Shown here: positions 60,598 through 62,257 of the stretch, in pieces
How positions within the stretch are numbered: position 1 is the first letter of the stretch
Layout of the letters: the number at the start of each line of letters is the position of its first letter
Origin: Dictyostelium discoideum
Lineage: Eukaryota
Length of the DNA stretch: 64,000 nt
Reading direction: 5' to 3'
Assembly: GCA_000004695.1 (NCBI GenBank)
Contig: CM000151.3
Location: 7,648,001 to 7,712,000, forward strand
Position numbers and translations under genes: made by a program
Notes under the pieces: model-generated
Seen by the model: only the letters and a program-made list of their open reading frames with translations
The model's database searches: none
Told to the model about the DNA's origin: nothing

Positions 60598-61727
60598 TTA
60601 ATTATTTATTGATGTTTTAATTTGATTTTGTTCATTTTTATAATAATTCCAAATAATGATTGAAGCTATAAATGTTAAAAATATTATAATTGTATTTATA
60701 AAGTAAGGTGCTTGAGGAAAAAAGAAGGGTGATTTATTTGATATAAAATACATATATATATCACCTGTGGCTAATGCACCTGAAAATTGTGCCAAACTAC
60801 CAAGTGATTGTAATCCAGTTATAATTGTTCCCTGTAGCTCTGGTGGTGTTACAATTGAAATCAATGATTGAATGAGATTTGTATTATTTGGTACAAAAGT
60901 TCCAATACCACAACCAAAAATATAATAGTACTTACTATGATTTGAAAAAATCATTAAAATATGAGAACAAAAACTAATAAAAAATCCAATTGAAATTACT
61001 TTTCTTGTTGCTTAAAAAAAATATATATATAAAAATTAGTAATAGTTTTTTTTTTTTTTTTTTTTTTTTTCATTTTAAATTGCTTACAAAAAAAATTTAA
61101 TAAAATTGGAATTCCAACAGCTCCCCATAAAATTAAAATAAAACCTAACCCACCTATAAACAAACCAATTTCTTTTGGAGTCCATGAATACATTAAAGTT
61201 GTATAATAATAATAAGTATTTGAAAAATCTTGACTTGTATATGAAATTGAAATAAATAATAAAATGATCCAAAATAATGAACCTCTTGATGAGAATAAGT
61301 CATAAATATGTTTAAAAGGATTTAATGAATTTTTTTTTTCCTTATATGTGCTATTCTTTTTTGCAATTTCTAAACTTTCTAATAAAAATGGTAATCCAAA
61401 GAAACAAACAATTAACAATCCAGCTGCAACATATAAAGTTAAATCTTGGATAGGTGACCCTGAAGTGTAAACATAAATTAAAGGACCAAATATAATACCT
61501 GATCCAATTGCAACTCCAGCCAATGAATATAACAAGGATACATGGGATTCATAAAATGAAACATCTGAAATAAATGAAAAAACAGCTGCATTTGCTACAT
61601 TATTTAATCCTGCAATACTATGACCAACATAAAAATATATTAAATTGTTTGTTTTCATTGTTACCCAACATGATAATATATCAAAAAATGTCATTACAAA
61701 ACTTAATAATAATATTGGTTTTCTTCC

Positions 61728-61796
<69 letters not shown>

Positions 61797-62257
61797 TAGT
61801 AAAATAATTATAAATTAATTATAAATTAGTTTTAAAATTAAAATATTTACTTATCAGATAAAACACCAAATAAAGGACCAAATAAAAACATTGTAAAATA
61901 TGGTATGGAATCAGAAAATGATTTATAATAAGCTGACCTTGATTGTTGTTCAGTTGGTGGTAAATGTGGATAATTTTTTTTTACAAATTCACTAAAAACA
62001 CCAGGTAAAAACAATGAATATAGATAACATGACATAATTAACAATGCATAAATTATATAAAGAAAAATTACTTGTTTTAAATATTTATGCTCCCTAATAG
62101 ATGGTTTAGTTTCAACTTCTTTTTTTAAAAGTGGGTTTTTTTCATCATATTTTTTACTTTCTTCCTTGTCTTCAATTTCATTTCCAATGATTATTATTGA
62201 ATCACCATTTTTAATACCACTTGTTTTTTGATATATTTGTTTATTATTTGGTTCCAT
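60598..62257 (-). CDS. Second MFS transporter (paralog of 20593-22290). Exons 62257..61851, about 61729..61088, 61010..60598. Possibly defective at the intron-1 acceptor
   Basis: Exon 1 ..YYKSFSDSIPYFTMFLFGPLFGVLSDK|gtaaat. Exon 2 YGRKPILLLSFVMTFFDILSCWVTMKTNNLIYFYVGHSIAG.. Exon 3 S..TRKVISIGFFISFCSHILMIFS..GTIITGLQSLGSLAQFSGALATGDIYMYFISNKSPFFFPQAPYFINTIIIF. It is collinear with the first MFS gene, whose exons 3 and 4 are fused here. The sequence between exon 1 and exon 2 ends in a 64-nt homopolymer with no AG acceptor. Confidence 0.65.

Follow-up and report, generated by a model that had tools for sequence, protein, structure and literature searches.

A splice-acceptor base probably lost to consensus error at the edge of a 64-nt A-run in a conserved Dictyostelium discoideum MFS transporter gene

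Introduction

How does a transporter gene with open, conserved exons come to have a first intron that contains no AG at which it could end? The question is posed by an MFS gene near one end of a 64,000-nt stretch of Dictyostelium discoideum DNA (referred to here as the window), in which intron 1 passes without a break from a long homopolymer into the exon encoding part of the family's signature motif. An earlier sequence-only reading had flagged the gene as a possible pseudogene or splicing oddity, and here we use the gene model, its orthologues, a near-identical assembly and the differences that surround the locus to weigh damage to the gene against damage to the record of it. Our conclusion is that the missing acceptor G is probably a consensus error in a Sanger-era reference, made at the edge of a homopolymer.

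The gene and its first intron as written

The gene lies on the minus strand of the window, and its parts are as follows.

60598 to 62257, minus strand: MFS transporter gene of three exons, TetA-like but distant, with its ATG at 62257 and its TAA at 60598
61851 to 62257, minus strand: exon 1, opening with the ATG at 62257 and ending ...GGT GTT TTA TCT GAT AA (GVLSD + AA), phase 2
61845 to 61850, minus strand: intron 1 donor GTAAAT, which starts directly after the end of exon 1 (61851)
61795 to 61801, minus strand: branch-point-like TACTAAT, read from the sequence, directly upstream of the A-run
61731 to 61794: homopolymer, T64 on the plus strand and A64 on the coding strand, in which 62 A are followed by the discrepant base (61732) and then by the opening base of exon 2 (61731)
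61732, minus strand: discrepant base, A on the coding strand (T on the plus strand), where eight of eight related assemblies have G, the G of the AG acceptor
61088 to 61731, minus strand: exon 2 in the orthologue-consistent model, starting A/TAT GGA AGA AAA CCA
61723 to 61724, minus strand: cryptic acceptor AG inside the codons GGA AGA, the first AG downstream of the donor, in frame
61011 to 61087, minus strand: intron 2, GTAAGC ... TTTTAAG, with an A25 run inside
60598 to 61010, minus strand: exon 3, ending with the stop codon TAA

In the gene model that we built, where intron 1 is spliced as in the orthologues, the gene encodes 487 aa, and the exons of the window copy contain neither frameshifts nor stops. 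The protein matches the Pfam family PF07690 (MFS_1) with 93.3 bits against a cut-off of 33.4, over profile positions 1-346 of 347, and in this orthologue-consistent model it carries motif A, the TM2-TM3 loop signature G-x-x-x-D-(R/K)-x-G-R-(R/K), as GVLSDKYGRKP. A crude Kyte-Doolittle scan gave 8 strong hydrophobic peaks, the family having 12 TM helices in two bundles of six.

The T64 run is the longest of the 62 homopolymers of at least 20 nt in the window, the next longest being 51 and 50 nt, and in the orthologues its last A (61731) already belongs to exon 2, as the opening base, which leaves 63 nt of run in the intron. Over the 119-120 nt from the donor up to TATGGAAGAAAACC, the G of the donor is the sole G on the coding strand, and there is therefore no AG before the YGRKP exon. 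The sequence-only reading was thus right about the gene structure, right to describe a 64-nt run without AG in front of this exon (T64 at 61731-61794), and right that a canonical splice cannot occur in the sequence as written, no AG being found from the donor to exon 2. Translation past the donor would stop at once, at GAT AAG TAA. Upstream of the run, TACTAAT is a putative branch point by its likeness to the yeast-type UACUAAC consensus, and intron 2 has the same heptamer ahead of its own acceptor. Neither a long A/T run, commonplace in this genome (the GC content of the window is 22.6%), nor an AG-free interior, which is to be expected, sets intron 1 apart; its sole abnormality is the missing terminal AG.

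The motif-A Gly and Arg are important in the MFS proteins that have been studied. The cryptic AG at 61724-61723 would join LSDK to KP and delete exactly the Tyr-Gly-Arg of motif A, giving a protein of 484 aa, although its use in cells is presumptive. The earlier suggestion of a downstream AG therefore holds in that the motif-A Gly-Arg would be lost if such a site were used, but the product would be LSDKKP and not the LSDKKKP that had been predicted.

A paralogue in the same window

A second MFS gene, at 20593-22290, translates exactly to the AX4 protein DDB_G0277167, which is 49.8% identical to the product of the gene studied here. Introns 1 and 2 of the two genes fall in the same alignment column and phase, and the paralogue carries a third intron; its motif reads DRFGRKP, with motif A otherwise the same. 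The shared placement of intron 1, claimed earlier from the letters alone, was borne out by the alignment (same column, phase 2), the intron lying inside LSD(R/K)(F/Y)GRKP at the junction of (R/K) and (F/Y), and in the paralogue it does have the normal end ...tttaaatag/A that had been reported.

A ComC_SSD gene adjoins DDB_G0277167 and likewise the MFS gene at 60598-62257, so that the pair of an MFS gene and an adjacent ComC_SSD-domain gene occurs twice in the window (20593-27000 and 60598-64000), an arrangement that indicates an old segmental duplication. Introns with long A-runs also recur, at 21641-21762 (intron 2 of DDB_G0277167) and at 61011-61087, and in one of them A22 is followed directly by the acceptor G, placing the splice site one base from a slippage-prone run.

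Orthologues and selection

Eight related assemblies from five species were compared, namely three of D. discoideum, two of cf. discoideum, and one each of D. dimigraforme, D. citrinum and D. firmibasis. In all eight (the D. discoideum assembly designated ACTFIT and seven others), intron 1 ends in AG at exactly the position at issue; the donor hexamer is GTAAAT in six of the eight and begins GTAA in every one, and in four of the five discoideum-clade assemblies A26-A40 precedes the acceptor G. Introns 1 and 2 keep their position and phase in all relatives, intron 2 doing so in the paralogue as well. YGRKP is invariant in the orthologues, and dN/dS against the window is 0.14-0.27 at dS of 0.08-0.66. 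Judged from these sequences, the gene is conserved and under purifying selection, and an A-run followed by G is its normal acceptor. Its protein belongs to a 90%-identity cluster of five, all of them from new assemblies and not one from AX4; the forms that alternative AX4 gene models would yield, the 484-aa product of the downstream AG and a truncation starting at an internal Met, were absent from the protein collection searched.

These comparisons bear on the idea that the A-run closes with a non-AG (AA) acceptor for intron 1, tolerated in an AT-rich genome, which would restore motif A from the sequence as written. Nothing else speaks for it, and we consider it to have next to no chance of being correct: AG is used at this position by all the relatives, including the strains with A26-A40, the donor GTAAAT is of the ordinary U2 type, and A64 offers no unique definition of an AA site that would keep the frame. 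Membership of a non-canonical intron class, whether AT-AC or with a non-AG acceptor, was rejected on the GT...AG ends seen in eight of eight related assemblies, and for the same reason the proposed splicing oddity does not stand as a property of the gene.

Comparison with a near-identical assembly

The most informative of the eight is ACTFIT (GCA_054883475.1), in which the 487-aa model is identical to the D. discoideum protein KAM9946408.1 (ACTFIT_004715) and the coding sequence matches that of the window at 1461 of 1461 nt. Over 12.5 kb ACTFIT departs from the window at 2 mismatched positions, against a divergence of about 5% for the remaining D. discoideum assemblies, and ACTFIT is almost certainly AX2-214, a near-identical laboratory strain, because AX2-214 is the only laboratory strain in the published set to which we attribute it, where it was sequenced by Nanopore plus Illumina (PMC12745789).

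The gene of KAM9946408.1 has the exon structure, donor and branch-point-like element of the window gene, and only three differences lie within it: on the coding strand G in ACTFIT is A in the window at 61732, the long run is 34 A longer in the window, and the run in intron 2 is longer there by 3 A. Intron 1 of ACTFIT thus reads GTAAAT...TTTTACTAAT-A28-G/A TAT GGA AGA, with its acceptor, A28-G/ATATGGAAG, following ACTAAT. The two states of 61732 are distinguished by the plus-strand k-mers GGTTTTCTTCCATATC, in which the AG is present, and GGTTTTCTTCCATATT, as in the window; across 61650-61900 a window-like sequence reads ...CCATATTTTT... with no C on the plus strand, and in mRNA the junction of TTATCTGATAA with ATATGGAAGAAAACC corresponds to the canonical splice and that of TTATCTGATAA with AAAACCAATATTATT to the cryptic AG and the YGR deletion.

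Run length was considered as a sign of artefact and then dropped. The window and ACTFIT (L003, L004) mostly give the same length for runs of up to 25 nt, and also for those of 31 and 33 nt; every run of at least 36 nt, together with one of 30 nt, is shorter in the Nanopore-based ACTFIT (25-34 nt), and none is longer there. The lengths of long runs are thus unreliable in at least one of the two sequences, and since ACTFIT shortens such runs, A64 may be real and A28 an under-call. ACTFIT is for this reason an imperfect standard, yet it is unable to invent an ancestral G.

The same comparison weighs on the reading of the gene as an old paralogous pseudogene decaying after duplication. This gains something from the gene being one of two MFS paralogues in the window and from its lack of a usable acceptor as written, but orthologues with the same two introns are intact in eight assemblies of five species, the dN/dS values and invariant motif A given above are those of a gene under constraint, and the window copy has clean exons and a coding sequence identical to that of an intact gene in a near-identical strain. 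We judge such decay to be scarcely credible, and the earlier suspicion of a decaying paralogue or pseudogene falls with it. The pseudogene class was set aside on the finding that the lost AG is the sole lesion, with the exons open and constraint kept. Anything more exotic than a reference error or a real AX3/AX4 allele is, taken as a whole, highly improbable.

Private differences in the neighbourhood

About 36 kb of the window was compared with ACTFIT, and wild strains were used to polarise the differences. Polarisation succeeded for 20-21 of the 25 substitutions, and all of these are private to the window and none to ACTFIT. Between 49218 and 61760 there are two substitutions only, both at the edges of runs of at least 30 nt and both gene-disabling: one removes the AG at 61732 in the MFS gene, and the other the ATG at 59247 in a CAP gene. 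As run-flanking positions number about 20 in 12,543, the chance of both substitutions landing on them is, by our own arithmetic, about 2.5e-6.

59247 to 60479, plus strand: CAP/SCP-domain gene of a single exon, with a TTG start in the window directly after an A32 run

The start of the CAP gene is ATG in ACTFIT and in two wild strains, and the k-mers AAAAAAAAATGATTAAAAT and AAAAAAAATTGATTAAAAT form a pair at 59247 analogous to that of GGTTTTCTTCCATATC and GGTTTTCTTCCATATT at 61732. The corresponding AX4 protein, DDB_G0277187 (372 aa), starts at Met39 of the 410-aa open reading frame of this gene, as expected if AX4 carries the TTG of the window at 59247, and it is without the hydrophobic N-terminus resembling a signal peptide (MIKIIFLIIILINVINGYG). 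From this start, the exact match of the paralogue to DDB_G0277167 and the lack of an AX4 protein in the MFS cluster, we conclude that the window is the 2005 reference of AX4, chromosome 2, or behaves as that reference does.

On the other side of the MFS gene, 1.4 kb from the acceptor, 12 substitutions and 5 one-base indels relative to ACTFIT are crowded into 63128-63491, and every polarisable difference among them is private to the window. The 5' end of the ComC_SSD-domain gene (ATG at 63176) falls within the block, and its exon 2 is thrown out of frame there; this looks like sequence of low quality, with the pattern of a poor read end. Gene conversion from a paralogous sequence was entertained as its source and rejected, only low-complexity matches being found elsewhere in the window.

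Further differences were seen away from these sites. At 59059-59125, where the window reads A31-GGG-A33, ACTFIT lacks the GGG and shows one continuous stretch of A, shorter by 22 nt. Towards the 5' end of a DUF747-domain gene lie four private substitutions, including one dinucleotide, at 13507, 13785 and 13793-13794; none is beside a homopolymer, and ACTFIT and one wild strain agree against the window at all four. Beside a tRNA-Asp(GTC) gene (window 27988-28059; L004 17370-19553), ACTFIT has about 2.1 kb that is absent from the window and that contains a 444-aa open reading frame flanked by repeats of 220-320 bp matching window 29542-29961; either a tRNA-targeted element has inserted here or one of the assemblies is collapsed at this point. 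A literature search on the identifiers of the neighbouring genes returned no matches.

Reference error or recent mutation

At 61732 the state in the window is private to one assembly and contradicts both the nearest strain and the outgroups, which is the pattern of an error. The number of true differences that could be expected is small. Base substitutions arise in this species at 2.5-2.9e-11 per site per generation (PMC7466956, PMC3466296), and Ax2 and AX4 carry an identical axeB lesion and therefore have a recent axenic ancestor in common (PMC4374526); by our own arithmetic, 36 kb should hold far fewer than one true substitution separating AX2 from AX4, and only about 0.1 even at 1e5 generations. 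Resequencing of AX4 mutation-accumulation lines turned up 1917 candidate differences from the reference, of which 1916 were common to the lines, and the authors ascribed these to errors in the reference or to differences between stocks (PMC3466296). We infer that the one-base difference is technical in origin, as opposed to a real mutation, and of the three options of the sequence-only reading, the one that best fits the comparative data is loss of the AG through an error in the assembly or length of the homopolymer.

Under this explanation, the MFS gene would be an intact, conserved transporter gene with two introns, in which a long A-run (A26-A40 followed by G in the D. discoideum clade) sits between the TACTAAT element and the AG. 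The acceptor G would have been recorded as A in the Sanger-era, AX4-like window, through a mistake in the base call or the consensus next to a homopolymer through which Sanger reads do not pass cleanly, and the run would then have fused with the first base of exon 2 to give A64. The living strain would have a normal U2-type GT-AG intron with TACTAAT some 30 nt upstream of the AG (more if the run is truly long), and would make the 487-aa protein with motif A intact.

The error reading also has points against it. A Sanger read entering from the exon 2 side meets 61732 before it meets the run, where calls are normally good, and an error therefore needs thin or one-directional coverage at this point. 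In addition, the conservation of the splice site in wild strains is a matter of selection, and is uninformative on the rate of mutation at run edges in laboratory strains.

The competing account, which we regard as unlikely though well short of negligible, is that a G-to-A mutation truly occurred, and very recently, in the AX3/AX4 lineage and destroyed the 3' splice site. Retention of the intron would then place a stop right at the donor and yield a product of 136 aa, splicing at the AG at 61724-61723, 9 nt inside exon 2, would yield 484 aa without Tyr-Gly-Arg, probably inactive, and loss of the mRNA would be a third possible outcome. In dislocation mutagenesis, misalignment at the edge of a run yields substitutions of this kind, and such misalignment predicts exactly the change seen here. 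G:C to A:T is moreover the favoured direction of spontaneous mutation in the species, in which substitutions are enriched in simple repeats (PMC7466956). A mutation would account for the absence of the acceptor AG in the sequence as written, and the cryptic AG lies in frame and the AX4 proteome has no product for the gene. Against this stand the expectation of far fewer than one true AX2-AX4 substitution in the region, a coding sequence otherwise unchanged from ACTFIT, and the clustering within 4.3 kb of two gene-disabling run-edge changes and a garbled block of 360 bp, all private to the window, which error fits better. Recent inactivation as first proposed could hold only in the form of a change private to the strain or the assembly.

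Contigs spanning the acceptor were also sought. Two Logan contigs (L005, L006), found with the 136-aa read-through product, are identical to the window but end 22-23 A into the run, short of the acceptor, and are uninformative on it. Ten exact exon-2-side products (an edge-cut K-run followed by R/K and YGRKP..., and forms starting at Met, each allowing for two lengths of the intron 2 run) found no counterpart in the collection; a search with the exon 2 peptide alone at E<=1e-20 gave zero returns and missed known full-length orthologues as well, and is uninformative.

Implications

If the acceptor G was indeed lost to a consensus error, the biology is ordinary, that of a conserved gene with one homopolymer-edge base private to an assembly, and the observation is chiefly of use to curators, through the correction of two gene models in this stretch, or perhaps three. 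One base appears to have left the reference proteome without a conserved MFS transporter, and the CAP gene is annotated without a signal-peptide-like N-terminus because its ATG reads TTG; both models can be corrected from the AX2-like assembly once verified. More generally, reference discrepancies in this genome cluster at the bases flanking long A/T runs, and as many introns end in an A-run followed by G, discrepancies at run edges can silently remove splice sites or start codons.

Were the loss of the AG real, the AX3/AX4 lineage would be without a conserved transporter or would carry a variant lacking the Tyr-Gly-Arg of motif A. It would set the two most widely used laboratory strains of Dictyostelium apart by a hidden genetic difference and would provide a natural motif-A deletion; with a transporter lost or impaired specifically in AX4, comparisons of AX2 and AX4 phenotypes would find it of modest interest.

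Comparison with known systems

Outside the dictyostelids, the best matches of the protein are bacterial DHA1 efflux transporters of the Tet(A)/Tet(B)/Tet(C) type (TCR/Tet), at 24-29% identity, with which it has in common the MFS_1 fold and motif A between TM2 and TM3. Its score against the Tet(A)/Tet(B)/Tet(C) family model NF012174 of NCBIfam is 97.9 bits, below the threshold of 475, and the product is therefore a distant relative of the Tet(A/B/C) family and no member of it.

The closer parallel to the lesion itself is found in the homopolymer-edge errors of Sanger-era references for AT-rich genomes, which likewise alter a single base next to a long run in one assembly only, with other private changes of the same kind nearby, and for AX4 discrepancies between the reference and its stocks have been documented (PMC3466296).
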